Origin: a virus
Strand: one strand, 5' to 3'
DNA: 64,000 nucleotides
IMG/VR virus record: IMGVR_UViG_3300017963_000016
Location: 1-64,000 of that record
A model generated the notes under the pieces. It did no database searches and had not been told where the DNA came from. It was given only the letters and a program-made list of their open reading frames with translations. Shown piece by piece: positions 1-27,806 of this stretch (within the stretch, counting starts at the first letter, position 1; the number at the start of each line of letters is the position of its first letter). The translations under genes and the position numbers were made by a program.

Positions 1-237
1 CATAGGAAAAATCTTAATTTCATTCTCTATTTCTAAGTCTATAATTTTTATCAATATTCCTTTAAACTCTACATTCTTTAATGGTTTTCCCTTAAGCATA
101 GTCTTAGAGAAATATTGTAAAGCCTGGAGGAATCCACTTAATAATTCTACTTTATCAGGGTCAATTAATTCCTCTTCAAATGATATATCTAGAATTAATT
201 TTCCTCCCTCATCATATAATAAAATATTGTAAATCAT
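1..237 (-). CDS. Longin-like domain protein (runs off the window edge)
   Basis: Manual translation from ATG at 237: MIYNILLYDEGGKLILDISFEEELIDPDKVELLSGFLQALQYFSKTMLKGKPLKNVEF...; beta-G-beta start plus an LLSGFLxAlxxF helix typical of Asgard longin domains; not in the ORF track. Confidence 0.7.
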   Translation of the reverse strand, partial: MIYNILLYDEGGKLILDISFEEELIDPDKVELLSGFLQALQYFSKTMLKGKPLKNVEFKGILIKIIDLEIENEIKIFPM

Positions 238-5445: not shown

Positions 5446-5543
5446 CACTAGTCGTAAAATTTTAAGAGGAGAAAATATTTTAAATGAATCTTATAAGAGC
5501 CTGAAGGCTCCAGGTATCCAAAATAGAAAAATGCTCCTGAAAA
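5446..5543 (+). repeat. Dispersed intergenic repeat, copy 1 (98 bp)
   Basis: CACTAGTCGTAAAATTTTAAGAGGAG...GCTCCTGAAAA; one mismatch to 27709-27806; first 45 bp identical to 21347-21391. Confidence 0.95.
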
Positions 5544-5939: not shown

Positions 5940-6788
5940 TTATCTAATTCTTGATCTCCTTTTTGTTTTTTTCTTTTTGGAGGATTTTTTAGGCTTTCTT
6001 TTCTTTCTGAAGTAATATATAAATACTAAGCTAAATAGGGAAATAGTGCTTATAATTAAGATTAATAACCAATTATCTATAAGCCATTGTAAGATTGGGT
6101 TTGAATTATAGCTTGAATATAAATCGGTAAAAAGAAATTTAATATCCTCAGTATTTGTTGTATCAGGGATATATGATATTGCTTTAAAACAACAATCCTC
6201 CTTATCCCTAAACCAATTGCTAGGAATTATTATTGAGAATCCATTATGATTTAAATCTATATTTCCAAAAACAGTTCGATTATCCATTGTTATAGCATAA
6301 ATAGTTTCAATCGCTCCTGTATATGTTTCTGAGGCTCCCAAGCCTGTGAATCCCTCTTTAGAGCAATTGCTCCAGAATAAAACTAAAAAAATATCAATAT
6401 CTCTTGTATCTCCCTCTGTATAGAAATCAATACTAGCATTATCCTTATCTAAATCTGTTATCTCAATTCTTCTAAAATCAAGAGCTTTATATTCATTATA
6501 TTCTGAATCTGTAAGTGTTTTTGAGTATTCAGTATTATCCCAATTCTCTTCCAGAATATTGTAATATTGATCTAATTCTTTAAGATCATCCTCCTCTGCT
6601 AAATCTGTTATGTTTTCTCCATATTCAGTAAGCTCTTTCAAATCTTTAATTTTGAATACTCTCTGATCTCTTAATGAATCTTCTGGAAAAACAATAGAAT
6701 CCTCAACAGCTAGGGCCATAGATAAGCTATAAAGAGAGATTATAGTTAAAATTCCTATGATTGAAATTAATTTAGTCTTATTCATCAC
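5940..6788 (-). CDS. Type I membrane protein (signal peptide, acidic ectodomain, C-terminal TM, basic tail)
   Basis: N-terminal signal ending in ALA; TM WLLILIISTISLFSLVFIYYF; tail RKKRKPKKSSKKKKTKRRSRIR. Confidence 0.8.
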   Translation of the reverse strand: MMNKTKLISIIGILTIISLYSLSMALAVEDSIVFPEDSLRDQRVFKIKDLKELTEYGENITDLAEEDDLKELDQYYNILEENWDNTEYSKTLTDSEYNEYKALDFRRIEITDLDKDNASIDFYTEGDTRDIDIFLVLFWSNCSKEGFTGLGASETYTGAIETIYAITMDNRTVFGNIDLNHNGFSIIIPSNWFRDKEDCCFKAISYIPDTTNTEDIKFLFTDLYSSYNSNPILQWLIDNWLLILIISTISLFSLVFIYYFRKKRKPKKSSKKKKTKRRSRIR

Positions 6789-6934
6789 AATTCAAATTAA
6801 TATTCTTAATAATATATTATCAATCCAAAATATAAATTATAACTATTTCAACTAATTTATTTTTTATTAATACTTTTTTATTCAGGATAAAAAAATGCTC
6901 TTGAATTGAAAAAATTAAAAATAAAAAAAATAAT

Positions 6935-7882
6935 TTATGAACTTATAACTCCAAGAGTTTGAGTATCTTTCCCATCAATGCTTATATCTATTGTGAAAAG
7001 CTCTATCTCATCATATTGATTGATATTGAAGAATAGCTCCTCAATAACAATATCTCTTTTTTGCCCAACTTCTATAAATGCTTTCTCCCTTAAGGAGACT
7101 ACATCTAGGGGATTAGTTTCCTCTATATCTCCTGTGAATAATCCAAGAGGAGCTTCTAATAGAAAGAATACAAAAGTTTCTACATACTCATCCTCAATCA
7201 AGCCTCCTGATACATCATAATCAATCTCCATATACATAACTAAGTAATCAATAACAAAATAATCATTCTTACTTAATTCTAGATCATCTTCTATTAAAGT
7301 TCCAGGAGGATAATAAGGCTCTGGAGGAGCCTCTTCAATATCAATATAAGGGAATACAAAATCCTCTGATAATAGATTAAGTATTCCTCCCTGATATATT
7401 GTCATAGCTCTAGGATATTTAGTAGCATAGAAATCAGAATCTTCCTCTCTCCAGCCTCTGCTCTTTAGCTCTTTTTTTACTTCATTTGCTGTATTTTTAC
7501 CATCAGCTAATTCTATAAGATCAGGAACTATATCAGGATTATCAAAATGGCCATAGGTAATTCCTAATGTAGAGGAAATATTCTCACTAGCATATTCTTC
7601 ATAATCGAAAGTTCTTTTGCCTAAGCCTCCCTCAGTTGTATCATTTAAAATAATTTTACAGTCTCTTGAGAGAGTTATGGTTAATTCAGCCTCATTTACT
7701 TCAGTTGGTAGAATTGAAAGGAAAATTGGCTGTAATAACATCCCTATTGGAATACCTGCTATTATTCCAAGACTAATAGATATTAAGATAATATTTCTCC
7801 TGGAATTAGGATTTTTTTTTCCTCCTGAGGCTCCTGATTTTGTTTTTCTTCTAGGTTTAGGATTATTTTTCATGGTTATCAT
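6935..7882 (-). CDS. Type II membrane protein, paralog A
   Basis: Basic N-tail (PRRKTK...NSRRN), one TM, acidic ectodomain; paralog of 7966..8919. Confidence 0.8.
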   Translation of the reverse strand: MITMKNNPKPRRKTKSGASGGKKNPNSRRNIILISISLGIIAGIPIGMLLQPIFLSILPTEVNEAELTITLSRDCKIILNDTTEGGLGKRTFDYEEYASENISSTLGITYGHFDNPDIVPDLIELADGKNTANEVKKELKSRGWREEDSDFYATKYPRAMTIYQGGILNLLSEDFVFPYIDIEEAPPEPYYPPGTLIEDDLELSKNDYFVIDYLVMYMEIDYDVSGGLIEDEYVETFVFFLLEAPLGLFTGDIEETNPLDVVSLREKAFIEVGQKRDIVIEELFFNINQYDEIELFTIDISIDGKDTQTLGVISS

Positions 7883-7965
7883 TTATTTAAATTTAATTTA
7901 AAATAGGCTGAATATGTATTTATTTTTTCAGTTTAAAAAAAGTTAAAAAAAAAGATTAATTAGGT

Positions 7966-8919
7966 TTAGGTAGAGCCTCCTAACACATAAAGAGTCTCAG
8001 GTCTATTATCTATTACTAAATCCATAGAAAAGGCATTAAGCTCATCAAATTCATTGATATTGAAGAAAAACTCTTCAATGATTATATCTCTTGTATCGCC
8101 CTCTTCTATAAAAGCTGATTCTCTTAGAGTAAGAACATCTAAAGGATGATCTTCTAATTCCCCTGATATTAAAGCTCTAGGAACATTTAATAATAAATTT
8201 GCTGATACATAAATATAGTCATCCTCAATTAAGCCTCCTGATACATCATAATCCATTTCTAATATACAAACTATTTGATCAATCGTAAATGGCTTATCTT
8301 TACTCAATTCCAGATCATCTCTAATTAAAGTTCCTGAAGGCCAATAAGCTTCAGGAGGAGATTCAGATACATCAATAAATGGGAAAAAAAAGTCTTCACT
8401 CATCAAATTTAAAGTCGCAAATCCCTGTAATCCAATGCTCATGGCTCTAGGATAAATTGAGCTAAAAAAATCAGCATCCTCTTCCTCATAGCCTCTATCC
8501 TCTAACTCTTCTCTTAGTTCATTTAAAGAAATATCAGGCTGAGATAAATCAATTAAATCCAAATGAATTTCAGGATTCTCAAAATAGCCATATCTTACAG
8601 CCATAGTAGAGCCTGAAATATTCTCATTAGCATAGGTAATATAGTCAAAAGTTCTTTTGCCTAAGCCTCCCTCAGTTGTATCATTTAAAATAATTTTACA
8701 ATCTCTAGCTATAGATATATTCAGCTCAGCCTCAAGAGTCTCCTCAGTTGGTAAAATTGAAAGGAAAATTGGCTGTAATAACATCCCTATTGGAATACCT
8801 GCTATTATTCCAACAGAAAGTGTTATAAGTAAAGCATTTCTCCTGGAATTAGGATTTTTTTTTCCTCCTAAGGCTCCTGGTTTTGTTTTTCTTCTAGTTT
8901 TATCACTCATATTTATCAT
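7966..8919 (-). CDS. Type II membrane protein, paralog B
   Basis: Shares GIIAGIPIGMLLQPIFLSILPTE, DCKIILNDTTEGGLGKRTFDY and DYDVSGGLIED with 6935..7882; start may be 8910. Confidence 0.8.
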   Translation of the reverse strand: MINMSDKTRRKTKPGALGGKKNPNSRRNALLITLSVGIIAGIPIGMLLQPIFLSILPTEETLEAELNISIARDCKIILNDTTEGGLGKRTFDYITYANENISGSTMAVRYGYFENPEIHLDLIDLSQPDISLNELREELEDRGYEEEDADFFSSIYPRAMSIGLQGFATLNLMSEDFFFPFIDVSESPPEAYWPSGTLIRDDLELSKDKPFTIDQIVCILEMDYDVSGGLIEDDYIYVSANLLLNVPRALISGELEDHPLDVLTLRESAFIEEGDTRDIIIEEFFFNINEFDELNAFSMDLVIDNRPETLYVLGGST

Positions 8920-9058
8920 TTTAAAGATAAATTATATTAATTAAAAATAGCTTGAATTTCTATTTATTTTTTCAGCTATGTGAAAGATTTTTCTCAGGAG
9001 GATTTTTACCTAGATAATTATTTGAATAAAAAATTATAATAGTGTGAAAATAGATCGA

Positions 9059-9161
9059 TTCTACCTATATTTTAAGGTTTTTAAAAAGATCGTGATTCTA
9101 TGGCCATTCAATTTTCAATACTACTATATAGATAATTTCAAAATAAGTTCTACCTATATTT
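9059..9161. promoter_or_regulatory. 14-bp direct repeat TTCTACCTATATTT upstream of the paralog pair
   Basis: Identical at 9059-9072 and 9148-9161 in a non-coding gap. Confidence 0.4.
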
Positions 9162-9205
9162 ATTTCCAAAATTAGAAAAAATAATTTTTAGGTCCAGGAT
9201 AAAAA

Positions 9206-9484
9206 TTATTCTTTTTTAATCCCATTGCTTAAAACACATAATAAGATTATTGGATAAATGAGCCATAAGAAATTCTCAAAAAAATAGGATATATCAAATG
9301 GAAATCCAAATATAATAATAGGAGAGCCTAATATATAATTAAAATAAGAATATAATATTGTAAATCCAAAAGTAAAGATAAGAGCTATTATTATAGTAAT
9401 CTTTCCTCTCTTATTTAATCTATATTTTGTTTTCCTTTTTTTCTTTTCTTTTTTTCTCCTGGAGCCATTATCCTTTTCAGGCAT
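9206..9484 (-). CDS. Small 2-TM protein with a basic GSRRK N-tail
   Basis: MPEKDNGSRRKKEKKKRK followed by two hydrophobic segments. Confidence 0.75.
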   Translation of the reverse strand: MPEKDNGSRRKKEKKKRKTKYRLNKRGKITIIIALIFTFGFTILYSYFNYILGSPIIIFGFPFDISYFFENFLWLIYPIILLCVLSNGIKKE

Positions 9485-9701
9485 TTTTTTTCTTTCTCCT
9501 TTCTTCTTTTCTTTTAGCTAATAAGGAACGTAAATATTTCTCATGTTCTTTCTCTTGGAGTGCCATAATTCTGAAATGGCCAAATTTATTCATATCTAAA
9601 TTATAAATTGCCATATAAGTCTTATGAGCCTCATTCTCATCTTTAATATAAAATTCAATTTCCTTATCAGTTAATTTTTTTCCCTCTTTTCTTTTAGCCA
9701 T
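9477..9701 (-). CDS. Mini ferritin/rubrerythrin-like protein
   Basis: IKDENEAHKTY and MALQEKEHEKYL resemble the paired E...ExxH helices of the ferritin-like fold. Confidence 0.5.
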   Translation of the reverse strand: MAKRKEGKKLTDKEIEFYIKDENEAHKTYMAIYNLDMNKFGHFRIMALQEKEHEKYLRSLLAKRKEERRKKKNA

Positions 9702-9722
9702 TTTTTATCTCCTTTTTAATTT

Positions 9723-10046
9723 TTATCTTCTAGTTCTAGGCTCAGCCTTTACTCCTGATCTATATTTTCCTTTTTGTATTCTCCTAATTTTCCAATAGTA
9801 AGCTACTCTAAACATAATATAGAATAGCATAAGTAGTAATACGTAGAGGATAAACCCATCTAACTCTACTATTTGACTTCCTACATTCATTTTTATATCC
9901 CAATCAATATAATCAATGAAAAGAGGAACTAAGAAAAAACTAACAACTCCAGAAAGAACAACAAAACAGCATTTAGCTTGGAATTTCTTATACTCATTAA
10001 CTACTTTTGCTCTTCTTCTTATATCTCTATCTGAATAGCCTACCAT
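9723..10046 (-). CDS. Small 2-TM protein
   Basis: Two hydrophobic helices, basic N- and C-tails. Confidence 0.75.
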   Translation of the reverse strand: MVGYSDRDIRRRAKVVNEYKKFQAKCCFVVLSGVVSFFLVPLFIDYIDWDIKMNVGSQIVELDGFILYVLLLMLFYIMFRVAYYWKIRRIQKGKYRSGVKAEPRTRR

Positions 10047-10058
10047 TATTTATTCTCC

Positions 10059-10235
10059 TTAAGGTAATAGATCATAAGCATTTACTAAAGGATGTTTATA
10101 TAGCCTTTCTCTTAATTTATCAGGCATTTTCTCTAACTCTATTTCTAATTTAGATTGATTTCTTAATAATTTCCAAAGTTGATCTAATGCTTTTTTATAT
10201 TTCATATAACTACTATCTCTCTGAGATTCAGGCAT
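10059..10235 (-). CDS. Small hypothetical protein (58 aa)
   Basis: Manual translation MPESQRDSSYMKYKKALDQLWKLL...AYDLLP*; AAGGAG RBS; fills an operon gap. Confidence 0.6.
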   Translation of the reverse strand: MPESQRDSSYMKYKKALDQLWKLLRNQSKLEIELEKMPDKLRERLYKHPLVNAYDLLP

Positions 10236-10284
10236 GATTATTATATTCTCCTTTAAGATTATAAATTTAGCTTTTTTCTATTAA

Positions 10285-10815
10285 TTAGAATACTATAGTT
10301 CCTGAGCCAGAAAAGTTTTCGTTTTTAGATATATATATCTTAATATATTTTAGAATTTGCTCAGGAGTCATGCTTTTTACTTTAGGTTTGTAAATTTCAA
10401 TAGGCTTTTTTGAAATAATGGTATTGGTTAATTGAGAGCTTAATCTTACAATATAGAACTCATCTTTCTGCTTATGTTTGGCTATTGTATAATACCAATT
10501 CCCTTTTCTTACCTGTCTAAAGGTCTCAATATTTCCTTTCATATTAGAATCCAGGTAATTGATCATGTGAGTTTTTTGAGGATTGTATTGGATTTTAATT
10601 TTTTCTTTTTTTCCAGGATTAATGAAAAAATCTTCCTCTATTCCTGTAAATTTTCTCTTGGCAACTCTACCATTCTTTAGAACTTTAGAGTAAGTTAATT
10701 GATTGTAAAAACCTCTATTTATAACTTTAATTATTACATATTTATCAATAAAGTTATCCTGATAAATTATTAAGCCTTTCTCAGCCTCTCCTTTCTTTAA
10801 TCTCCTGAAAGTCAT
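10285..10815 (-). CDS. Basic hypothetical protein
   Basis: 176-aa ORF in operon. Confidence 0.65.
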   Translation of the reverse strand: MTFRRLKKGEAEKGLIIYQDNFIDKYVIIKVINRGFYNQLTYSKVLKNGRVAKRKFTGIEEDFFINPGKKEKIKIQYNPQKTHMINYLDSNMKGNIETFRQVRKGNWYYTIAKHKQKDEFYIVRLSSQLTNTIISKKPIEIYKPKVKSMTPEQILKYIKIYISKNENFSGSGTIVF

Positions 10816-10816
10816 A

Positions 10817-11065
10817 CTATTTCCTCATAAACCAACTTTTACTTTTATATAATCTAGTTTTTAATTTATTAAACTTCTTTTGGGATTTGATTAAATAGTT
10901 CCTTATAGTATCTAAATCTTTTTTATCAGATTCCTGTAAAAAACCTTTAAATTTTTTCAGGTCCTGTATTACTGATTCAAGATCAGTATTTAGCTTTCCT
11001 GCTAAATCATAATAGGTAAAAACATTTTTGCTATTTTCCTTATTTAAAATATCTAGTCTAGCCAT
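10817..11065 (-). CDS. Small helical-hairpin protein
   Basis: 82-aa ORF with two amphipathic helices. Confidence 0.65.
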   Translation of the reverse strand: MARLDILNKENSKNVFTYYDLAGKLNTDLESVIQDLKKFKGFLQESDKKDLDTIRNYLIKSQKKFNKLKTRLYKSKSWFMRK

Positions 11066-11083
11066 TTTACTTATTTATTTTCT

Positions 11084-11383
11084 TTAATTAATAACCCATT
11101 TTCCTGTAAATTTTGCTTTCATATAATCATAGGGGTCGTGGCCTAAATAACTCATAGCCTGAATTGGATTTTTGATCATTTTAAGAGGAATCCATACTTC
11201 CCTATTCATTGTAAATCTGAAAATAAATTCTATTTTCTTATTTTCTATTAAAGCTTTTTTTAATCCTGTCTTATTTTTAATCTTCTTAATTTCAGGATTT
11301 TTTATAGAGAGTTTAGGATATTTAGAATTAATTAAGGTTTTTAACTCCTTTTCAAATATTGTAAGCTCTACCATATTTTGCAC
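11084..11383 (-). CDS. Hypothetical protein
   Basis: 99-aa ORF in operon. Confidence 0.6.
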   Translation of the reverse strand: MQNMVELTIFEKELKTLINSKYPKLSIKNPEIKKIKNKTGLKKALIENKKIEFIFRFTMNREVWIPLKMIKNPIQAMSYLGHDPYDYMKAKFTGKWVIN

Positions 11384-11384
11384 A

Positions 11385-11660
11385 CTATTCTTTTGGTTTG
11401 AATTTAATTAATCTATTATTTACTTTAATTAAACGATCTTTTACATCAGCTAATCCATAAATGCTTTTAAGGATTAGAGTTGAGTCAATATTATGCCTAA
11501 ATCGATCTGAGCTAGGTATAATCTCTAAAGTAAGTTTATCTATAAGTTTTATAGCTTTTAGAATCCTCTCTTGAGTATTATTATAAACTCTCTTATCTTT
11601 GGTATATAATATTTCTGAGCCTCTTCTTTTTTTTCCTGGTTTTTTAGCCATTTCTATCAC
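11385..11660 (-). CDS. Small helical-hairpin protein
   Basis: Probable start MAKKPGKKRRG at 11651. Confidence 0.65.
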   Translation of the reverse strand: MIEMAKKPGKKRRGSEILYTKDKRVYNNTQERILKAIKLIDKLTLEIIPSSDRFRHNIDSTLILKSIYGLADVKDRLIKVNNRLIKFKPKE

Positions 11661-12201
11661 CTAGCCATTTTTCTATATCGTTAAAAATTCTTATAGCTAA
11701 TTCCTGATTTTTTTCAGGCTTTTTATCTAATGTAATTAAAACTCCTTGAACTTCCCATTTATTAGATTTTGTAAAACCCATTACTACTTGAGAGCCTTTT
11801 GAAATTGAATCAGCTCTCCTCCCTATTTTATGATTGAATGATTTTGAGGCTCCTGGTTTAGCTGTTAAGAATCTCATATATTTACCAGGATTTCTAAACC
11901 TATTACGGTAAAAGCTAACAGTAATATCAATTCTTTTGATGGGAGGCTGAGGCTCTATAAATCTGGATTCAAAAACTCTTTTGCCTTTTTTGGTTATTCT
12001 CATAGCTTTAATATTAAGGATTTCTCTTATTTTAATTACTTTTTTCTTGGCCATATTCTCAATTGTATAAGATGGGATACTCTTCTTTCCTAAATATTGG
12101 GCAACATTCTCAAAAGAATCCCATTTGCTTTTAGGCTTTTCACTCTTATATAAGTATTCTAATATATTATATTCTAAATCTCCATATTTTTCTTTTGGCA
12201 T
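11644..12201 (-). CDS. wHTH-domain protein
   Basis: LEYNILEYLYK...MAKKKVI...RITKKG winged-helix pattern. Confidence 0.6.
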   Translation of the reverse strand: MPKEKYGDLEYNILEYLYKSEKPKSKWDSFENVAQYLGKKSIPSYTIENMAKKKVIKIREILNIKAMRITKKGKRVFESRFIEPQPPIKRIDITVSFYRNRFRNPGKYMRFLTAKPGASKSFNHKIGRRADSISKGSQVVMGFTKSNKWEVQGVLITLDKKPEKNQELAIRIFNDIEKWLGDRNG

Positions 12202-12216
12202 TTTCTAAACCTCATT

Positions 12217-12462
12217 CTAATTATTTGTTTTTGCTCCCTCAACCCTACTATTTAATTCTTTTAATTTAATTCCCGCTTTAAATAATAGATTAGAAATTTG
12301 AAGAGAGATTTCACGATCTTTCTCAAAGATATATTCCTCTCTATTTATAGCTGAGCTTTTTTGGAGTTTGAGCAATGTATTTCTCATTTTAATATTATCA
12401 GCCATTAGCTTTTTTTTATTGGCTAATGAATTATTTACTAAAATTTGTTTTTCTTTAGGCAT
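12217..12462 (-). CDS. Small helical-hairpin protein
   Basis: 81-aa ORF. Confidence 0.6.
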   Translation of the reverse strand: MPKEKQILVNNSLANKKKLMADNIKMRNTLLKLQKSSAINREEYIFEKDREISLQISNLLFKAGIKLKELNSRVEGAKTNN

Positions 12463-12467
12463 AAGTA

Positions 12468-12689
12468 TTACTTTCTCCTCCTATTCACTATACTAGAATA
12501 AAAAGCATAAAAGAATACAATTCCAAATATAAAAACAAATATAGGTAAAAATACAGCAAAAAAGAACAGTAAGAATCCTCCTAGCATAAAAGTAGTAATA
12601 ATAGCTAAGACTAGTATAATTATATTGCTCCTCCTTTCCTTTGATGTTGATTTACTATACTTTTTTTTTCTTTGACTTTTTTCAGGCAT
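12468..12689 (-). CDS. Small 2-TM protein with a basic N-tail
   Basis: About 45-aa hydrophobic hairpin flanked by basic residues. Confidence 0.75.
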   Translation of the reverse strand: MPEKSQRKKKYSKSTSKERRSNIIILVLAIITTFMLGGFLLFFFAVFLPIFVFIFGIVFFYAFYSSIVNRRRK

Positions 12690-12694
12690 ATTTT

Positions 12695-12931
12695 TTATCC
12701 TCCTCCTAATTCTGATAGATCAGGGAATATATTTTGAATATCTTTAATTCCCTGAATAATTTGCTCTCCATATAAAAGAGCTAATATTCCAATTGTAGTT
12801 AATATTAATATTACTAACAGAAAGAAAGTAATTCCTAAGCTATAGAATACTCTCTGTAATCCTGTTAATTTTACCTTTACTCTAGGCTCTTTATTTTTTC
12901 TCCTGGAGCCTTTTGTTTGTTTTTTTGCCAT
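12695..12931 (-). CDS. Small membrane protein with MAKKQTKGSRRK leader
   Basis: One long TM plus an amphipathic C-terminal helix. Confidence 0.75.
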   Translation of the reverse strand: MAKKQTKGSRRKNKEPRVKVKLTGLQRVFYSLGITFFLLVILILTTIGILALLYGEQIIQGIKDIQNIFPDLSELGGG

Positions 12932-13215
12932 TATTTCCTCACTCTTTTCTTTTTCTCTTTTTTTGGTTTTTTTCTATTAGATAATAATAATGATGAAAAG
13001 ATTAAAATTAATCCAAAAACTAACAAGAATGTTGATATGGGATATATCGATCTTTCTCCTCTACAGGCAATTGAATTATCTCCAATACAAAAAGGATTTC
13101 CCTCAGGAACTTCTATTCCTGGAAATTGAATATAATGAAAATTTAATTCCATAACTAAAGATAAAATACATAAGATTATTCCTGTAAATAATATAATTCT
13201 CTGTTCTTTATTCAT
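12931..13215 (-). CDS. Small 2-TM protein with a Cys-containing loop
   Basis: TM - loop FCIGDNSIAC - TM - basic tail. Confidence 0.75.
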   Translation of the reverse strand: MNKEQRIILFTGIILCILSLVMELNFHYIQFPGIEVPEGNPFCIGDNSIACRGERSIYPISTFLLVFGLILIFSSLLLSNRKKPKKEKKKRVRK

Positions 13216-13217
13216 TA

Positions 13218-13484
13218 TTAGAGCCTCCTAGTTAAATAGAATGTAATTAAGAGGCCTAAAAATATAGAGAAAGCTAAATTAATAACAAATAGAATTACTT
13301 CCTCATTTCCTCTGAAATTCCCTGATAGCATTATAGTTGGTAAAAACCCATAATTCTCTCCTATCCATTGGAATACCATAAAGAATAATAAACTGAGTAG
13401 AATCCCTAAAGGAATATTTAAATAAAGACTTTTTTTGAAATCTTTACTACTCTGAGATTGTTTTTTAGTTTTTCTTCTAGTCAT
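13218..13484 (-). CDS. Small 2-TM protein with a TRRK N-tail
   Basis: MTRRKTKK followed by two TMs. Confidence 0.75.
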   Translation of the reverse strand: MTRRKTKKQSQSSKDFKKSLYLNIPLGILLSLLFFMVFQWIGENYGFLPTIMLSGNFRGNEEVILFVINLAFSIFLGLLITFYLTRRL

Positions 13485-13744
13485 AGCTTAATCTCCTTTA
13501 ATCTAAAGCCTGGATAAAACCAATATTTATATTTTCTATTTTCCTTTATTTGTAATTCTACTAAATCAATTTTCTTTAATTTAAAAAGATTATTTAAAAC
13601 AGTATTATATGAAATTTTATGGTTATATCTATTCTCTAATACAAATTGAATCTGTTTAGGAGTTGCTATCCCATCATTAACAACTCTTAAAATCCTCTTT
13701 TGATTTTTAGTCAAACTCTTCTGTATTTCTTCAATAGATTTCAT
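13481..13744 (-). CDS. wHTH transcription regulator
   Basis: LTKNQKRIL...ISYNTVLNNLFKLKKIDLV. Confidence 0.7.
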   Translation of the reverse strand: MKSIEEIQKSLTKNQKRILRVVNDGIATPKQIQFVLENRYNHKISYNTVLNNLFKLKKIDLVELQIKENRKYKYWFYPGFRLKEIKL

Positions 13745-13752
13745 TTATTAAT

Positions 13753-14019
13753 TTACCATTTCTTTTTCATATTATATCTATAACTAATTGCTCCAATGAT
13801 TAAAACTGTTATACCAAATGCTATTCTAATAATTCTACCTATATGGAATATTGTTGGGTCGTCAGGCTGTAGAAAAATTGAATAACTACCATCTAAGATT
13901 AGGCCAATGCCTATTATTATTAACAGAGTGTCTATTAACAAGATAAGCATTTTTTTGTTTTTCTTACTTACTTTAACCATTTTCTTTCTCCTGGAGCCTT
14001 TTGTTTGTTTTTTTGCCAT
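13753..14019 (-). CDS. Small 2-TM protein with MAKKQTKGSRRK leader
   Basis: 5' end identical in DNA to 12695..12931; two TMs. Confidence 0.75.
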   Translation of the reverse strand: MAKKQTKGSRRKKMVKVSKKNKKMLILLIDTLLIIIGIGLILDGSYSIFLQPDDPTIFHIGRIIRIAFGITVLIIGAISYRYNMKKKW

Positions 14020-14020
14020 T

Positions 14021-14596
14021 TTACTTTTTACCTCTTTTAAATTTCTCTGGTCTTAATACAATTATAAAAAATATTAATAACACATCATATAATAAGATTA
14101 AACCTATTAATGTAAGAAATGAAATATCGAAATTTAGTTGATAACCTGGTAAAATCTCTAATCCTAATTGATCCACTACATAACTAGAATAAACTGTTGA
14201 TTCAGCTTGAGTAAAAGCAATTAATCCATAAATAGCCTCTCCAATAATAAAGTTTAAGCCTAATACAAAAGCAACAGTAATAGTAGCTATTATGAAAATA
14301 TAATTATCATGTATAAACAGCCTTATAACTAAAATATGTATTATAAAAAATACAACAAAAGCAGAAATACTATAAATATCTGTTGCTTCTAGCTCAGGAA
14401 AGGTTTGATAAAATTGCTCATCTAATCCTTGAGTTATTACAAAATTAAAAACAAATACAGGAAAAAACATTAGATAAATTATAGTAGATACCATTGTAAA
14501 AGCAATTACTCTTAATAGATTTGAGTAAAAGTCTTGCCCAATGATCTTATACTTCCTAAGTATATCTTGGTTTTTCTTTCTTCTAGATTCACTCAT
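14021..14596 (-). CDS. 4-TM membrane protein with an SRRK N-tail
   Basis: MSESRRKK followed by four hydrophobic segments. Confidence 0.75.
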   Translation of the reverse strand: MSESRRKKNQDILRKYKIIGQDFYSNLLRVIAFTMVSTIIYLMFFPVFVFNFVITQGLDEQFYQTFPELEATDIYSISAFVVFFIIHILVIRLFIHDNYIFIIATITVAFVLGLNFIIGEAIYGLIAFTQAESTVYSSYVVDQLGLEILPGYQLNFDISFLTLIGLILLYDVLLIFFIIVLRPEKFKRGKK

Positions 14597-14597
14597 A

Positions 14598-15767
14598 TTA
14601 AAAAATTGCTAATTGTTCAAATTTTACTGTATAGTCTAAATGTTGATCTTCCCAATCAATATTATTAATATCAATCTCTCCTAATAATAATCCAAAAGCA
14701 GAGCTATAAAATAGATCAGGATTTACAAAAACAAATATTAGAGTTAAATCTTCTATTATAACTGTATTGTTTATTTTTGTAAAATTATTAAAAATCCATA
14801 ACCCTAATGAAAGTGTTATATTGAGAGTTATTATATCTGAGATTATATATTTATTCTCTTCATAATTTATTTTGAAAGTTTGATCTAACTCTGAGTTAAA
14901 AGTTATTGATTCCTCAACACTAAAATAACTTTCAGGCTCCTCATCATAGAAATAGCCTGAGATATTTAAATTAACTTCTAAGCTAAAATTAGTTAAATGT
15001 ATTGGAGAGTTAATAGCCACAATCTTCATATATGTATTGTTATAAGATGAGGAATTTATATATACTACAGGAGCTAAAGTAATTGTTTGAATCCTGGTAA
15101 AATTATTGATTGAAGTATATAATATATCAAAACCATTTCCTTGAAAATCCCAAAAGGATAAATTAGTCTCTACTCCATCTTGATCTACTATAACATCTAT
15201 GGAATACGTTAAGTTGATTATCTGAGAATAAGAAGTATTAAAAGAATCATATATATGGAGTATATTAATATGTTTATTCTTGATTTTCATATATTCATGC
15301 TCCCTTTTGAACTCCTCTGCTAATAAATTATTATAGGATTTTTCCTCACTCTCATAAGTAATATTCTTTTTTACAGAATTAATATGTGTAGTATTCTGAT
15401 AAATAGAAGTGAAATTCTTTTGAATCCTTATTTCTTTTAGAATTGCTGTTTTAGGTATTTTTTGTATGTTCTCTCCAGGTTTAAGAACTTGCTCCTCTCC
15501 ATTGTATTGATAAACGATCTGAATCTGATCAGATTCTACAGGATTCAAATTGTTTGAGATTTTGAGATTTACATCTTTAGCTAAGATTATTGCTATAATG
15601 ATTATTGAAAATGCCATAATTGGAATTAGCATTATAGCTATATTCCTCTGCTTTTTTGTCTCTTTATATGTAGAGTAATTGACTTTCCTCTTTTTTCTTC
15701 TAGGAGTGAGTTTTTCTTTCCCTTTCTTAGTTCTAACTCTCTGCTTACTCTTCCCTTTATTACTCAT
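14598..15767 (-). CDS. Type II membrane glycoprotein
   Basis: Basic N-tail, one TM, beta-rich ectodomain with 14 N-x-S/T sequons counted. Confidence 0.75.
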   Translation of the reverse strand: MSNKGKSKQRVRTKKGKEKLTPRRKKRKVNYSTYKETKKQRNIAIMLIPIMAFSIIIIAIILAKDVNLKISNNLNPVESDQIQIVYQYNGEEQVLKPGENIQKIPKTAILKEIRIQKNFTSIYQNTTHINSVKKNITYESEEKSYNNLLAEEFKREHEYMKIKNKHINILHIYDSFNTSYSQIINLTYSIDVIVDQDGVETNLSFWDFQGNGFDILYTSINNFTRIQTITLAPVVYINSSSYNNTYMKIVAINSPIHLTNFSLEVNLNISGYFYDEEPESYFSVEESITFNSELDQTFKINYEENKYIISDIITLNITLSLGLWIFNNFTKINNTVIIEDLTLIFVFVNPDLFYSSAFGLLLGEIDINNIDWEDQHLDYTVKFEQLAIF

Positions 15768-15768
15768 A

Positions 15769-16518
15769 TCAAAAATCCCTTAAAGCATATTCAACTAATG
15801 TTGTGATTATTAAATTCAAAACAACTAATATAACAAACCCTATCCAGAAAGCATAAAGTATATCTATAACTAATAAAGGAACTTCTTTAAAAGGGTCTCC
15901 TTTATTGAATGATAAAACTAATTCTCTGAGCATTTCCATAATTATAGGGTCATTTGGTATCCAGAAAAAAGCTATACCAAAAGCTATTACACTTCCTACC
16001 ATACTAGATAATATTATTCCCTTAAGTTTAACTTTATGATTCATAATTAAACTTAATATAAAATACATGAATAGAAAAATGATCATAGTTGCTAAAATTG
16101 ATAAATACATAAATCTAATTATCCTCCTCATATAAGTCTCTATCCAACGTAATTCTAATATTAAAGTTCCTAGAAGTTGATATATGATACTCCCAACGAT
16201 AGCTTGAACTAATCCTCCTACAGCTTCTCCAGGATCGCCTATAACATCCTCCAGGCCTCCTAAGAATACATCTCCTAAAACCTCAATCCCAAAGATGCCT
16301 CCAATGTTGATATTATCGTGAGCATAAATCCAGAGATAAGAATATAGTGTTTTAGCTAGTAATGGTAATATAAAGAGGAGTGTCATTCCTGTAGTTGCTG
16401 TAATAATAATATTATTCCTAAGAATCATTCTAAAATTTATAGCTCCCTCTCTATATTTTTCTAATGATAATGATCTTCTAGTCTTTCTTCTGGTCTTAGG
16501 TATATTTCCTCCTCCCAT
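15769..16518 (-). CDS. Multi-pass membrane protein with a TRRK N-tail
   Basis: Probable start MGGGNIPKTRRKTRR after a GGAGG RBS; about 5 TMs and a Gly-rich loop. Confidence 0.75.
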   Translation of the reverse strand: MGGGNIPKTRRKTRRSLSLEKYREGAINFRMILRNNIIITATTGMTLLFILPLLAKTLYSYLWIYAHDNINIGGIFGIEVLGDVFLGGLEDVIGDPGEAVGGLVQAIVGSIIYQLLGTLILELRWIETYMRRIIRFMYLSILATMIIFLFMYFILSLIMNHKVKLKGIILSSMVGSVIAFGIAFFWIPNDPIIMEMLRELVLSFNKGDPFKEVPLLVIDILYAFWIGFVILVVLNLIITTLVEYALRDF

Positions 16519-16519
16519 G

Positions 16520-17251
16520 TTAAAATCCTCCTCCTGCTTGAAAAGATAATCCATAAGCTATTCCATTGATAAAAGCATGTATAAACATATTAGTAGAGAT
16601 TCTCTTAGTTGCTTTAAATGAGAGAGCTAAAACAAATCCTGCAATAAAAGTTGAGAATAATAATTCAGGCTGATCTCCATAAACTGCAAAATGATAACTC
16701 ATAAAAGCTATTGGTCTTGCTATATATCCTGCTATATAGGTATTAAATACCATTTCAACAAAAATTTGGCATATTATAGTAAAAAATAATTCCTCAACAA
16801 TAGCCATTGAAATTGAGAAATATAATAAATTGAATCCTAATATATCATACTTAGGAATATCAATAGTATTGAAAATTAAATAATTACTTACTGAAATCAT
16901 AGCAAATCCAATAAGAATAACAAAAAACATTATTCCAAATTCTCTCCTTTCGAATCCTAAGGAAATTTCTATTTTAGTTCTTTTCTTTTTTATATCATTA
17001 ATAATAGGAATGAAAATTAAACCTGCTAAGCCAAAAATAACTGCGATTTGGCTTTTACCTGCTAGGTCTCTTAATACAGGCTCCTCTGAGGCCTGGAATT
17101 GAGTAATTATATAACTTAAGTAAAAAATGACTATAACAGTTAAAACCAGGAAAAATATTTGAAATTGATAAATCCACTTTAATTCTATTTGTCCTCTTGA
17201 TTGAGGGTCATTTCTGGTAAATTTTCTTCTAGATTCAGGTTTATTACTCAT
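16520..17251 (-). CDS. CPBP (Abi / type II CAAX, Rce1-like) intramembrane metalloprotease
   Basis: AIVEELFF (EE motif), FMSYH (FxxxH) and HAFIN (HxxxN) in a multi-TM protein. Confidence 0.85.
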   Translation of the reverse strand: MSNKPESRRKFTRNDPQSRGQIELKWIYQFQIFFLVLTVIVIFYLSYIITQFQASEEPVLRDLAGKSQIAVIFGLAGLIFIPIINDIKKKRTKIEISLGFERREFGIMFFVILIGFAMISVSNYLIFNTIDIPKYDILGFNLLYFSISMAIVEELFFTIICQIFVEMVFNTYIAGYIARPIAFMSYHFAVYGDQPELLFSTFIAGFVLALSFKATKRISTNMFIHAFINGIAYGLSFQAGGGF

Positions 17252-17328
17252 AATTAAATTAATTCCTTTTTTGGTATTTATTATTTAAGTTTATCTTATC
17301 TAAAAATGTAAAAAAAAAATATGTTAAA

Positions 17329-19017
17329 TTAAAATAGCTGTTGCTCTTGTCGTCTCCTAGATTTCGCTAGTTTTTTTCTTTCTTCCTCTATCTTCTTTCT
17401 CTCTTTTTTTAGCTTTCCTAGTTCTGATTGTAATTCTTGAGCTAATTGAGTATATTGTTGGCTTGGCTGAGCTGTTTGCTGAACTTCTATTCCTACTCTC
17501 TGAGTTTTAGGTTTTGCTCCTCCTCTGCTTAGTCTAACTACTAAGAATAAAATTACTATTACCATTACAATACCGATTATAGCAAAGATTATTCCCATGA
17601 GGCCTTCTAAGTTCAATAAATCTTCTAGCCAATCTAACGGTCCAGGTCGATCTTCAGTATGAATCACTCCTCCTGAGCCATCTACAGTTGCTGTCCATAT
17701 AAGATTATCATAATACTCAACAGGAGCTGTTAAAGTATCGTCTTCTAAATCTGTTTGTAATACTTCAGTTTCATAAGCTGTCCAAACATTCATTACAGCC
17801 TTAAGAGTTGGCTGAATATATCTATTTTGAACATGAAGAGCAACTTGTTTAGTTCGAGCTGTCCCTGAGCCTGTAGTTCCGCTCCACTCATCATAATTAG
17901 AGCCTAACCATGATAACTTATGTTTAACATCGTATTTATCATATTCCATAGTTGCTGAATATTCTAAAACTACAGGAGATAATCTCCCTAGATTATATGT
18001 GAATTTACAATCAGGCTGAGATTGATCAGTTCCCATAGGGTCGAATAGAGGAGAGCCATCTTTTAAGGTAGGGTTTAAAGATGAGCCTGGAGATTGAGGT
18101 AATATTCCCTCATCAAAAGTATTCGTTAATTTTGCGTCAAATAAACGTATATTGAAATCGAAGTTTTTTCCTCCTCTGGATTTGTCAGAGTCTCCACTCC
18201 AGGATTTCCTTTCTGCTGTCTCATCGTCAAAATCGCTAGGCTGAATTGTTTGAATAGTTGGCTCATCTTCAGATAACTTACCTCTCTCTGAGGATTCTAC
18301 AATTAAAGAGCTTACTCCTATGTAATCGAATTTCTTAGTCATAGGTCTACCTAAATCGTCAACTAGATTGTTAGGAAGAGGAGAGTCATCAATATCAAAA
18401 CTCATTACCAAATTTCCTGAGAATGAATTATGTTGAGCATTCCATGATCTAATATCTCCAAAATCATAATGATTATATTTTATACTAGTTGTTGAGTCTT
18501 GGCTTAATTTCCAGGCTCCTTTCCATTCATATTCAACACATATTCCTAAGATTTTGGTCTTACATTCTTTCCATTCATCCCAATAGTATCTCCTATATCG
18601 TAATGCTGAAAATGAGGAGTCTTTCTCTACCACTCCTGTAGAACAGGCCTGAGATAATCTAACATTTGTTAAAAGATTTAACTTCATTCTCATAGCCAAT
18701 TTATAATAAAGATAAGTTCGATTTCCTTGAGTTGCTGAGTATACTAGCTTAATATCCTCAGGAGCAATCTTCCATTGAGCCTCATTCTCAAATATCAATT
18801 TGCCTCCCGCATATCTATTTGATTCAATCTCAGTTCCTCTGAATGTATCAAATTTAAAATTCTTAATGATATCTCCATTAAGAACATATATTTTTTCAGC
18901 TAATTCCTCTTGAGCTTGAACATTAGGTATTAATGGAGTTAGAATAGGAAAAAGAGCCATGAAGAAAATAAAATAACCTAAGGCTAATCTATTTCTATTC
19001 TTAGATTTCATTTTCAA
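17329..19017 (-). CDS. Type I membrane protein, candidate spike/fusogen
   Basis: Signal peptide ending in VQA, about 430-aa beta-rich ectodomain with a CKTKILGIC hairpin, amphipathic LDWLEDLL before a C-terminal TM, coiled-coil tail. Confidence 0.6.
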   Translation of the reverse strand: MKMKSKNRNRLALGYFIFFMALFPILTPLIPNVQAQEELAEKIYVLNGDIIKNFKFDTFRGTEIESNRYAGGKLIFENEAQWKIAPEDIKLVYSATQGNRTYLYYKLAMRMKLNLLTNVRLSQACSTGVVEKDSSFSALRYRRYYWDEWKECKTKILGICVEYEWKGAWKLSQDSTTSIKYNHYDFGDIRSWNAQHNSFSGNLVMSFDIDDSPLPNNLVDDLGRPMTKKFDYIGVSSLIVESSERGKLSEDEPTIQTIQPSDFDDETAERKSWSGDSDKSRGGKNFDFNIRLFDAKLTNTFDEGILPQSPGSSLNPTLKDGSPLFDPMGTDQSQPDCKFTYNLGRLSPVVLEYSATMEYDKYDVKHKLSWLGSNYDEWSGTTGSGTARTKQVALHVQNRYIQPTLKAVMNVWTAYETEVLQTDLEDDTLTAPVEYYDNLIWTATVDGSGGVIHTEDRPGPLDWLEDLLNLEGLMGIIFAIIGIVMVIVILFLVVRLSRGGAKPKTQRVGIEVQQTAQPSQQYTQLAQELQSELGKLKKERKKIEEERKKLAKSRRRQEQQLF

Positions 19018-19026
19018 TCCTCCTGA

Positions 19027-20034
19027 TTAAACCCATTCTTTTATCATTAATATTTTAGTATCTTCCTTATCCTCTAAGAACCCCTCAAACAGAAAAACCT
19101 CAATAGGAGAGCTTTTTAGTTCTAATGTCATCTCCATTTGAGTTTGCCACATTACAATATCTAACAAGACTATGCCTGTATTCCATGATTCAATATAATA
19201 AACATCGGTATATTCCTCTCCATTATCCTCAACATCAGCATAAGCTATTTCTGAGCCATTGAAAGCTAGCCATAAGCCTAATCCGAATACCTCTTCCTCC
19301 AAGCTTAAGTCATATCCTTTCTTTTCTAGCCAATATTCAGGAATCCAGGAGCTAGCTCCATAGGTATCATACTCATCCTCAGGAGCAGGAAAATTAAAGT
19401 TTGTTATATTTATTACCATATCAAATTTAGTGTCTATTGGAAAATCTGATAAAGTAGCATTAATCTTAACATCGTCAATATGTGTTATATTAGCCTCTAT
19501 CCCTAATGGGTCGCTCTCAAACCAGATAATAAATGTATTAGTCTCATACTCTTCTTTTATCTCAGAGCCTATTGGAGAAATCGATAATGGTTGCCATTTT
19601 CTTGTATCTCCAGATTCTAAGTCTACATCCCAAACAACAGCATAAGCTCTCTCAGGAACATAGACTAAGTCTCCTGTTTTAACAGGATTATCATATAATC
19701 CCTCTGTAGAGGGAAAGTCATCAAAATTTATTTTTTTATCAGTATGATTAACCTGAATCAAGATTACCTCTCCCTGTAGCTCCTCTCCATTAGTGCCATC
19801 AATAAATTGAAATTTCATCCAACCCTGTCCTCCCATTCCTGAGGGCTGTAGAATAGATAAGAATACTAAGTAAATACTAGTAATACTAATTATAGCAATC
19901 AGAAAGACAGCTAATCCTATTTTTCCAGCTCTGCTTTTAGGGATAATTCTTCTTATTCCCTTTCTAGGCTGTTGGCTTTTAGCTTTGGTTTTAGATTTGG
20001 GTTTTCTCTGAGTTTTAGTTTGTTTTTTTGCCAT
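19027..20034 (-). CDS. Type II membrane protein with a basic N-tail
   Basis: MAKKQTKTQRK..., one TM, acidic beta-rich ectodomain. Confidence 0.75.
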   Translation of the reverse strand: MAKKQTKTQRKPKSKTKAKSQQPRKGIRRIIPKSRAGKIGLAVFLIAIISITSIYLVFLSILQPSGMGGQGWMKFQFIDGTNGEELQGEVILIQVNHTDKKINFDDFPSTEGLYDNPVKTGDLVYVPERAYAVVWDVDLESGDTRKWQPLSISPIGSEIKEEYETNTFIIWFESDPLGIEANITHIDDVKINATLSDFPIDTKFDMVINITNFNFPAPEDEYDTYGASSWIPEYWLEKKGYDLSLEEEVFGLGLWLAFNGSEIAYADVEDNGEEYTDVYYIESWNTGIVLLDIVMWQTQMEMTLELKSSPIEVFLFEGFLEDKEDTKILMIKEWV

Positions 20035-20152
20035 ATTAACATCAATTTAATTTGTTTTTATTTTATATTTAATTTCTATTACTATTAATTAGAACTAACT
20101 TTTTTATATTTTTTATGTTAAATATTATATAAATAAATTTTTGGTAAATATC

Positions 20153-20728
20153 ATGGGAGGAAATAAACCACCTAGAAAGAAAGCTCAGAATGATAAAAAG
20201 AGATATAGAAATAGATCATTAATCGTTATTTCAATTTCCATGTTCTTATTGATTGCTATGGGCTTTATTCTCATTGGAGCAATAAATTACAGAGTTTTGA
20301 GAGTAAGAACTAATATTAATTTTGAGAAAGATTCTGATTATATCGTTAGAGAAATTTTGATTGCTAAAGATGTTGTTGACCCTAGAGATGAGGATGATAC
20401 CTGGTATTTCAATGTAGTTGGCGGAGCTTATAACTATATAGATTTTGAGGGAGGATTGAATATCTCAGAGGCTAAAGAGGATTTTATCCAGGATTTTTAT
20501 GAAAGATTACAATTAGAGATTGAGATTGAATCTATTTATATTATCTTTTTAGTAGTTCCTAAATCTAATATAAATAAAACTTTAGCTGTAATCTCTGAGG
20601 AAATTGAGTTAGGATTATCTACCGATATTAAATTAGATTCTTATGACTATGATTTTGATGAGATTGAATATGAGCTTACTGATCTTTCAGCAGGATTCAT
20701 ATTAGAGGCTCTATTTAATATAGTTTAA
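20153..20728 (+). CDS. Type II membrane protein, possible distant paralog of 6935/7966
   Basis: MGGNKPPRKK...RNRSLIVISIS TM; ILIAKD vs ISIARD; divergently transcribed. Confidence 0.7.
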   Translation: MGGNKPPRKKAQNDKKRYRNRSLIVISISMFLLIAMGFILIGAINYRVLRVRTNINFEKDSDYIVREILIAKDVVDPRDEDDTWYFNVVGGAYNYIDFEGGLNISEAKEDFIQDFYERLQLEIEIESIYIIFLVVPKSNINKTLAVISEEIELGLSTDIKLDSYDYDFDEIEYELTDLSAGFILEALFNIV

Positions 20729-21346: not shown

Positions 21347-21425
21347 CACTAGTCGTAAAATTTTAAGAGGAGAAAATATTTTAAATGAATCCTATAATGA
21401 TTTAGAGGCTCCAGGTATTCAAAAT
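21347..21425 (+). repeat. Dispersed intergenic repeat, copy 2
   Basis: 45 bp identical to copies 1 and 3, then a diverged stretch that keeps AGGCTCCAGGTAT. Confidence 0.9.
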
Positions 21426-21460
21426 CAATCTTTTTTCCTGGAAATCAGGATATTAAAACT

Positions 21461-27708: not shown

Positions 27709-27806
27709 CACTAGTCGTAAAATTTTAAGAGGAGAAAATATTTTAAATGAATCTTATAAGAGCCTGGAGGCTCCAGGTATCCAAAATAGAAAAATGCTCC
27801 TGAAAA
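27709..27806 (+). repeat. Dispersed intergenic repeat, copy 3 (98 bp)
   Basis: One mismatch to 5446-5543; contains the palindrome CCTGGAG-G-CTCCAGG. Confidence 0.95.

Follow-up and report, generated by a model that had tools for sequence, protein, structure and literature searches.

Why should a series of mutually unrelated membrane proteins carry the same short basic motif close to one end? The question is raised by a block of genes at 5.9-21.3 kb of the IMG/VR record IMGVR_UViG_3300017963_000016, of which the first 64 kb (positions 1 to 64,000) are referred to here as the window. The record is classed as virus and consists of a single contig of 93,471 bp whose ends overlap by 123 bp, which indicates a circle of ~93,348 bp. 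A preliminary description of this DNA had noted that many membrane proteins of the block begin with an (S/T)RRK signature, and had proposed a sorting or genome-binding tag that recruits proteins into an envelope or vesicle, possibly read by a longin-type adaptor or processed by the co-encoded protease. In the current analysis the observation was confirmed and found to be stronger than originally put. The tag is very probably real, under selection and specific to this lineage of elements. As to its role, we give a probability of roughly 0.45 to the interpretation that it is a recognition handle, collecting the element's membrane proteins at a site of assembly or budding.

The tag conforms to the consensus K-[S/T]-R-R-K-[K/T] and lies 3-11 residues from the N-terminus, within polybasic tails predicted to face the cytoplasm. 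Among 23 instances from the window and its relatives, the residue preceding the arginine pair is S in 12, T in 7 and P in 2, the residue following it is K in 19, and the positions beyond are mostly K, T or Q. Counted from the nearest upstream Met, the first Arg stands at a median of residue 8; the pair usually starts at residues 6-11, with the first Arg at residue 3-5 in 4 of the 23 instances. The segment upstream of the motif is short and variable, and 6-42 residues (median 15) separate the pair from the first transmembrane (TM) window. With genes named by their lower coordinate in the window, each of the N-termini listed earlier is present as described: GSRRK in 9206, 12695 and 13753; ESRRK in 14021 and 16520; TRRK in 7966, 13218 and 15769 (read in the last from Met13); PRRK in 6935 and 14598; and looser basic tails in 12468, 19027 (TQRK) and 20141, formerly given as 20153 (PPRKK). 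The type I proteins 5940 and 17329 do carry their basic tails at the C-terminus, as ...KRRSRIR and ...KSRRR plus 6 residues, respectively, and RR occurs in the cytoplasmic C-tails of four of four type I proteins (these two and those at contig positions 73763 and 84621). Altogether, 18 of 21 RRK occurrences lie within ~35 residues of the N-terminus or 16 of the C-terminus (p = 1e-6), a count to which a few basic soluble proteins of small size contribute with their C-termini.

The charge of these proteins suggests their orientation. Tagged tails hold 7-19 K+R vs. 0-8 D+E and carry a net positive charge where they adjoin the first TM helix on the cytoplasmic side; the tails are thus basic, and the ectodomains are acidic, with isoelectric points (pI) of 4.2-4.9. 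The protein encoded by 14598 has 15 N-x-S/T sequons, 3.9 per 100 aa vs. 0.66 for the proteome, and 14 of them lie past the first TM helix, which suggests a heavily N-glycosylated surface protein. Acidic ectodomains, basic tails and the sequons of the 14598 ectodomain are consistent with an arrangement in which the tails are inside and the domains outside.

The frequency of the motif is far above what composition would produce. RRK occurs 21 times in 28,096 aa, compared with 6.3 expected by composition, and 12 of the 21 precede the first TM helix. Tail counts are approximate, since TM helices were called by a simple Kyte-Doolittle hydropathy window. By these calls, [S/T/P]RRK is found in 12 of 29 membrane-protein N-tails of at least 8 aa; shuffles that preserved the composition within each tail gave a mean of 0.30 such tails, and none of 20,000 reached 12. 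For comparison, we took 594 kb of a Promethearchaeota metagenome-assembled genome (MAG) with 30% GC that carries homologues of the 562-aa spike-like protein (17329), and whose background is a proxy only, since the host is unproven. There, RRK was found in 1 of 112 N-tails, that single instance sitting in a long soluble N-domain, and in 0 of 20 basic tails (Fisher p = 7e-9). The motif therefore stands ~40-fold above the membrane-protein background of this candidate-host MAG, and an RRK frequency like that of host N-tails does not account for it. Likewise, among 38 loci with spike homologues (L001-L038), RR[KR] tails were found in two syntenic relatives only, with 0 of 107 tails elsewhere. Within the element itself, the membrane proteins at 52-62 kb, described earlier as lacking the signature, have no RR, and those at 52-69 kb lack the tag, indicating that it marks a subset of the membrane proteins.

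The tagged proteins are, as the preliminary description held, mostly unrelated. All-against-all BLASTP of the membrane proteins returned 6935 and 7966 as the sole full-length paralogue pair, and similarity between 12695 and 13753 is limited to the first 12 residues. With one paralogue pair and one common leader, at least nine tagged families are mutually unrelated.

Homologues in related elements keep the motif, namely in L008, L032/L033 and P0024, three diverged relatives, and in P0027; the comparison extends to the only three or four related elements examined. L008, the end of a 73-kb contig (Ga0180433_10000412), is syntenic with 14.0-29.9 kb of the window at 40-60% identity, and L032/L033 is more distant (29-38% identity). 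The gene order spike, CPBP protease, 15769, 14598, 14021 is conserved in L008 and L032. L008 keeps [S/T]RRK in the protease, the 15769 family and the 14021 family, whose orthologue (60% identity) has KSRRK encoded as TCC CGG AGA AAA, and its spike-like orthologue ends in KSRRK plus 6 residues. Members of this lineage are scarce: the 15769 family counts four proteins among 5.8 billion clusters and was not found in 400 Asgard genomes. Across these four, at 33-80% identity, the RR does not vary, and the flanks diverge. Elsewhere the tag comes, goes or moves. In the 14598 family it lies at residue 23 in the window, is absent from L008 and reappears as SRRK at residues 5-8 in L032; in the 19027 family, TQRK of the window corresponds to a full KTRRK in L008; and the 20141 family has PPRKK in the window, none in L008 and M-SARRK in L032. 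Among homologues of 6935, the nearer ones carry SRRK at residues 6-9 (P0027) or TRRG (P0028), and more distant ones carry none. P0027, from another element, also starts with nearly the same leader as 12695 and 13753. Because the presence of the motif is kept while its position shifts within families, it behaves as would a short linear motif that is read by a common partner. The 14021 family returned only itself in a protein database search, and scans of viral contigs with the spike, the spike alignment, the 15769 family (A2) and family A3 yielded no relatives.

How might such a motif act? We propose that [S/T]RRK serves as a common handle on the inner face of the membrane, by which one partner would bring the spike-like, hairpin, type II and multi-pass proteins, the CPBP protease among them, to the place at which an envelope or vesicle takes shape. 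This partner may be the element's AT-rich DNA along with the many basic small proteins, of which the tagged arc encodes a number with a pI of 10, or an adaptor protein; S or T followed by R-R-K would suit an N-capped basic helix or a dockable turn. A protein reader is favored because the tetrapeptide is strict, whereas a plain polybasic tail would do for unspecific binding of DNA or lipid. Several points weigh against this proposal. No partner was found, and among the ~45 ORFs scanned against Pfam or PHROGs no capsid, portal or packaging ATPase was recognized, for which reason the particles or vesicles are themselves presumed. The strictness of the motif argues for a protein reader, for which there is no named candidate. 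The tag is carried by an enzyme and by several multi-pass proteins, which is unusual for purely structural components, and its absence from some orthologues means that it is not essential for every protein. Moreover, the known relatives come to about four elements only, the MAG serves as a proxy background and the TM calls are crude. The longin candidate of the preliminary description is a 150-aa ORF that spans the circular junction (contig 93134-93348 joined to window 1-237, minus strand), and neither of its fragments has a Pfam match. Thus, of the earlier interpretation, a selected common tag beyond the positive-inside rule is supported, and the link to a longin-type adaptor is not.

The co-encoded protease, suggested earlier as possibly processing the tag, is real and is conserved beside the tagged genes. 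The product of 16520-17251 matches PF02517, the Rce1-like or CPBP family, with 38.7 bits (cut-off 22.4; E = 1.2e-9) over profile positions 6-92 of 93. Residues E153, E154, F183, H187, H225 and N229, which make up the catalytic motifs EE, FxxxH and HxxxN, are invariant in four homologues; in motif 1 of the family, EExxxR, the Arg is replaced by Thr. The protease is apparently active, to judge from these residues. As for the enzyme's own tag, L008 retains it and L032/L033 have a weakened form; the gene was not found in the MAG G001 or in G002.

An alternative use of this enzyme, and the main rival to a recognition handle, is that the motif is a maturation site, where the CPBP protease or one of the host would cleave the dibasic RR(K) from the cytoplasmic side and so remove a short N-terminal propeptide from a set of proteins that assemble together. 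Maturation proteases of large viruses do use common cleavage motifs, the module of all three relatives retains an Rce1-like protease that is apparently active, the motif is always near a terminus, and the segment upstream of it is short and variable. However, the processing for which CPBP enzymes are known is of the C-terminal CaaX type or of leaders; they are not known for dibasic sites, and none of the membrane proteins has a CaaX end. The protease itself is tagged, L036 has a five-TM CPBP-like gene yet no tagged neighbor, and most of the polybasic tail would survive the cut. We regard cleavage as unlikely. Distinctly unlikely, too, is that the tag is a topogenic or targeting signal, be it a reinforced positive-inside signal, a signal like that of twin-arginine translocation (Tat) or one specific to another insertase. 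The consensus of Tat signal peptides is S/T-R-R-x-F-L-K, whose core the tag contains; the second SRRN of 6935 and 7966 abuts the hydrophobic helix in a Tat-like manner, and every tag is on the positive, inner side. Yet the main tag stands at a distance from the helix (6-42 residues before it) and has K, T or Q after RR rather than F-L-K; it is also present on multi-pass proteins and C-tails, and the helix-adjacent SRRN is not kept in P0027 or P0028. Membrane proteins of the MAG are inserted untagged. TatC (PF00902) had no match in the related MAG G001, and of 151 Asgard genomes sampled, 11 gave a match above the cut-off, the control for this search being positive in 11 of 14 genomes and the true host being unproven, so that the translocase is rare in the genomes sampled.

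Two further readings would deny the peptide a role of its own. In one, the pattern has no specific function and results from AT-rich codon bias, basic tails and shared ancestry of duplicated N-termini. Arg is indeed encoded by AGA in 74% of cases and Lys by AAA in 76%, 6935 and 7966 are paralogous, and the leader of 12695 and 13753 is the same at the DNA level, with part of it found in 9206. This is nevertheless highly improbable in view of the composition-keeping shuffles (0.30 vs. 12 observed), the 1 in 112 of a MAG of equally low GC, the at least nine unrelated tagged families, and a motif that is conserved and regained in diverged relatives. In the other, the conserved unit is a nucleotide element, the 10-mer CYAGRAGRAA, acting as an internal Shine-Dalgarno-like site of pausing or restart or as a CCWGG/CTAG site of methylation or restriction, and the peptide is its by-product. 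The 10-mer has 24 copies on the coding strand vs. 1 on the other; the codon before RR is pyrimidine-ended in 12 of 12 window copies, with TCC over-used; the element encodes one C5 and several N6 DNA methyltransferases; and in 13753 (13978-13995, minus strand) an AGGAG that forms part of the tag is followed 7 nt later by an in-frame ATG (Met14). Against this, frame 0 accounts for 17 of the 24 copies, which with few exceptions belong to membrane-protein tails (the out-of-frame copies are scattered PG(E/G) codons), and AGAAGA does not resemble a Shine-Dalgarno sequence. The relatives, furthermore, change the DNA and keep the peptide: their tags are written TCA AGA AGA AAG (twice), TCC CGG AGA AAA, AGC CGG AGA AAA and GCT AGA AGA AAA, changes by which the CCAGG and CTAGA words are destroyed. 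Because the copies are mainly in frame and the relatives recode the same residues, selection acts on the peptide, and the chance that the DNA word is the conserved unit seems very small.

The DNA does carry a trace of how the tag may have moved between genes. The 12-codon leader of 12695 and 13753 (positions 12895-12931 and 13983-14019, minus strand; repeat family D12) is 97-100% identical between the two, without a difference over 35 nt, rare GGC, TCC and AGG codons included, and the upstream DNA differs. Gene 9206 (9448-9461) has 14 nt, GGCTCCAGGAGAAA, in common with both (family D8). The shared leader DNA of the three genes indicates that the tag also spread by recombination, and the leader looks like a tag cassette that was passed on by recombination or gene conversion. 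A search with the DNA pattern of the M-A-K-K-Q...S-R-R-K leader gave only out-of-frame or unrelated matches. In 13753, the internal start mentioned above could also yield an isoform without the tail.

The genes of the module are listed in Table 1. An intergenic 98-nt repeat (family D1) is present in three co-oriented copies that are 82-99% identical; the third lies at 27709-27806, and the other two bracket the 5.9-21.3 kb block.

Table 1. Genes and flanking repeats of the membrane-protein module, in window coordinates.
Feature	Coordinates	Strand	Remarks
98-nt repeat, copy 1	5446..5543	+	Low-coordinate flank of the module; family D1
Type I membrane protein: signal peptide, acidic ectodomain, C-terminal TM	5940..6788	-	24-aa polybasic cytoplasmic tail with KRRS
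Type II membrane protein	6935..7882	-	PRRK at residue 11; second SRRN directly before TM; paralogue of 7966
Type II membrane protein	7966..8919	-	TRRK at residue 9; second SRRN before TM; 62% identity to 6935
92-aa two-TM hairpin	9206..9484	-	GSRRK at residues 7-11 of 28-aa polybasic tail
107-aa two-TM protein	9723..10046	-	Borderline tag IRRR in N-tail; RR in C-tail
73-aa two-TM hairpin	12468..12689	-	QRKKK and ERRS in N-tail; C-terminal end NRRRK
78-aa single-TM protein	12695..12931	-	GSRRK ends its 12-residue leader
94-aa protein	12931..13215	-	N-terminal hydrophobic segment, C-terminal TM, polybasic C-tail without RR
88-aa two-TM protein	13218..13484	-	Begins M-TRRK; TRRL in C-terminus
88-aa two-TM protein	13753..14019	-	Same 12-residue leader as 12695 (GSRRK)
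191-aa four-TM protein	14021..14596	-	ESRRK at residues 3-7
389-aa type II protein	14598..15767	-	PRRK at residue 23 of 42-aa tail; 15 ectodomain N-x-S/T sequons
Five-TM protein	15769..16554	-	TRRK; probable start Met13 at 16518
Rce1-like/CPBP intramembrane protease, five TM	16520..17251	-	ESRRK at residues 6-10; PF02517
562-aa type I spike-like protein	17329..19017	-	Beta-rich ectodomain, TM, long C-terminal helix ending KSRRR plus 6 residues
335-aa type II protein	19027..20034	-	40-aa polybasic tail; degenerate tag TQRK
195-aa type II protein, opposite strand	20141..20728	+	Tail with PPRKK and RYRNR
98-nt repeat, copy 2	21347..21444	+	High-coordinate flank of the module; family D1

The tag continues past the end of the window, as KSRRK at contig 86861-87271 and NSRRK at contig 92487-93185, and a type I protein at contig 73763-74491 has TRRKK in its C-tail. 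The tagged genes form one contiguous arc that runs from ~84.6 kb through the circular junction to 20.7 kb. The NSRRK gene encodes a three-TM protein directly downstream of the junction-spanning 150-aa ORF. The one canonical start open to it is a TTG far upstream, where it overlaps the preceding ORF; if the gene began instead at an ATT just after CAGGAG, tag and start would be at their usual distance. Except for the CPBP protease, the tagged proteins gave nothing above threshold with Pfam and PHROGs, nor did the ESM Atlas provide a useful lead for 15769. The AlphaFold model of the spike-like protein (pLDDT, the predicted local distance difference test score, of 73) had no PDB match at E <= 0.001 with Foldseek; VIA-align returned generic beta-sandwich domains with Z <= 6.5, which bears neither way on a fusogen fold.

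The element as a whole has 27% GC, no tRNA genes and ~188 ORFs, nearly all on the minus strand. Few recognizable families were found with Pfam and PHROGs, namely DNA methyltransferases, PAPS-reductase-like, radical-SAM and winged-helix regulator proteins and the one Rce1-like protease. None of the ~45 ORFs scanned belongs to a capsid, portal or terminase family, and a canonical Walker A motif is present in no ORF of at least 45 aa on the whole contig. The PCNA, RNR or head-tail genes described for Sköll and NMV1 are absent from the matches, although a partial ORF scan does not amount to their exclusion. A phage collection held no match to the element at the DNA or protein level; two DNA runs match it, from sediment and seawater metagenomes, and no RNA runs are listed. 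Homologues of the spike-like protein occur on contigs of a Promethearchaeota MAG and on many marine and hypersaline sediment contigs, and another is labeled Heimdallarchaeota by NCBI. This distribution links the element to Asgard archaea, which are its candidate, unproven host lineage.

At L036, L037, L038, L014 and L003, homologues of the spike-like protein are found in other contexts, namely beside tyrosine recombinases and large type I surface proteins, on Promethearchaeota MAG contigs, and on one contig binned as Patescibacteria, probably by misbinning. A G-R-Q-R-R-K/N stretch is common to their C-tails. Downstream of the spike homologue, 12300-18700 of L038 and 2600-9000 of L002 have almost no long ORFs under translation table 11 and contain short Met/Leu/Ile-rich frames only; these stretches could represent a frameshifted large gene, another genetic code or low-complexity DNA.

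If the tag is a handle, it defines the likely membrane proteome of a particle or vesicle. It would also be a simple pull-down handle for its reader, with a change of RR to KK as a clean mutational test. Were the reader a host factor, cargo selection in Asgard cells would become directly testable; were it DNA or a viral adaptor, this would explain the assembly of an element that has no recognizable capsid or packaging ATPase; and a sorting signal read by an adaptor would mean signal-mediated sorting of membrane cargo in a prokaryote. In any case, the tag is robust and cheap to test, and it belongs to an element with a link to Asgard archaea about whose biology little else is understood.

In searching the literature, we found no shared tail tag described for an archaeal virus or plasmid, and the known systems that come closest each differ from it. 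The positive-inside rule needs only net charge beside a helix. The tags do lie in K/R-rich segments on the predicted cytoplasmic side, but the rule leaves unexplained an ordered, near-terminal S/T-R-R-K, the preference for Arg in a Lys-rich proteome and the untagged host tails. What Tat signals share with the tag is a core of S/T-R-R that is close to the N-terminus and precedes a hydrophobic helix. The tag differs in its distance from the helix (a median of 15 residues), in the basic or polar residues that come after it, and in its presence on multi-pass proteins and C-tails; it thus fails two Tat features, hydrophobic residues after RR and an RR within a few residues of the h-region. Arginine-rich peptides that bind nucleic acids, such as the N-termini of lambdoid N proteins (T-R-R), AT-hooks and SPKK motifs, are likewise short, terminal and basic, with a helix-capping S/T before the arginines, and the genome of the element is AT-rich. 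Here, however, two arginines stand among many lysines, the proline-based turn of SPKK is missing, and the AT-hook core (GRP of R-G-R-P) is in no tagged tail.

The remaining parallels are eukaryotic. Co-sorting of unrelated membrane proteins by tail signals is textbook knowledge for eukaryotic trafficking and for enveloped eukaryotic viruses. Eukaryotic type II proteins carry an N-terminal di-arginine signal for retention in the endoplasmic reticulum, and arginine-based (RxR) signals are read by COPI. As in these, adjacent arginines lie near the cytosolic N-terminus of type II proteins, independent of the rest of the protein; in the tag, however, RR is usually at residues 6-11 rather than within the first five, and the S/T before it and the K after it are also conserved, so that the match to the di-arginine signal is a partial one. 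The Asgard lineage is the closest archaeal relative of eukaryotes, and it is conceivable, though very unlikely, that the tag is an archaeal counterpart of arginine-based sorting signals, by which a host or element adaptor, for instance of the longin/roadblock type, loads membrane cargo into a budding vesicle or envelope. No COPI-like reader was found in this comparison, nor do we know of one. Nearest to a handle at an assembly site are the tail signals of virion envelope proteins. Sorting of baculovirus envelope proteins depends on a hydrophobic N-terminus plus nearby positive charges. In retroviruses, envelope proteins are brought into virions by Env tails that are trapped by the Gag lattice (PMC12090761, PMC3395148). 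In these viruses, as proposed for the element, a feature of the inner-face tail sorts unrelated membrane proteins together to the site of assembly. The viral signals, however, concern a single protein or are loosely defined, whereas the present tag is a strict tetrapeptide on about a dozen proteins of a prokaryotic element.

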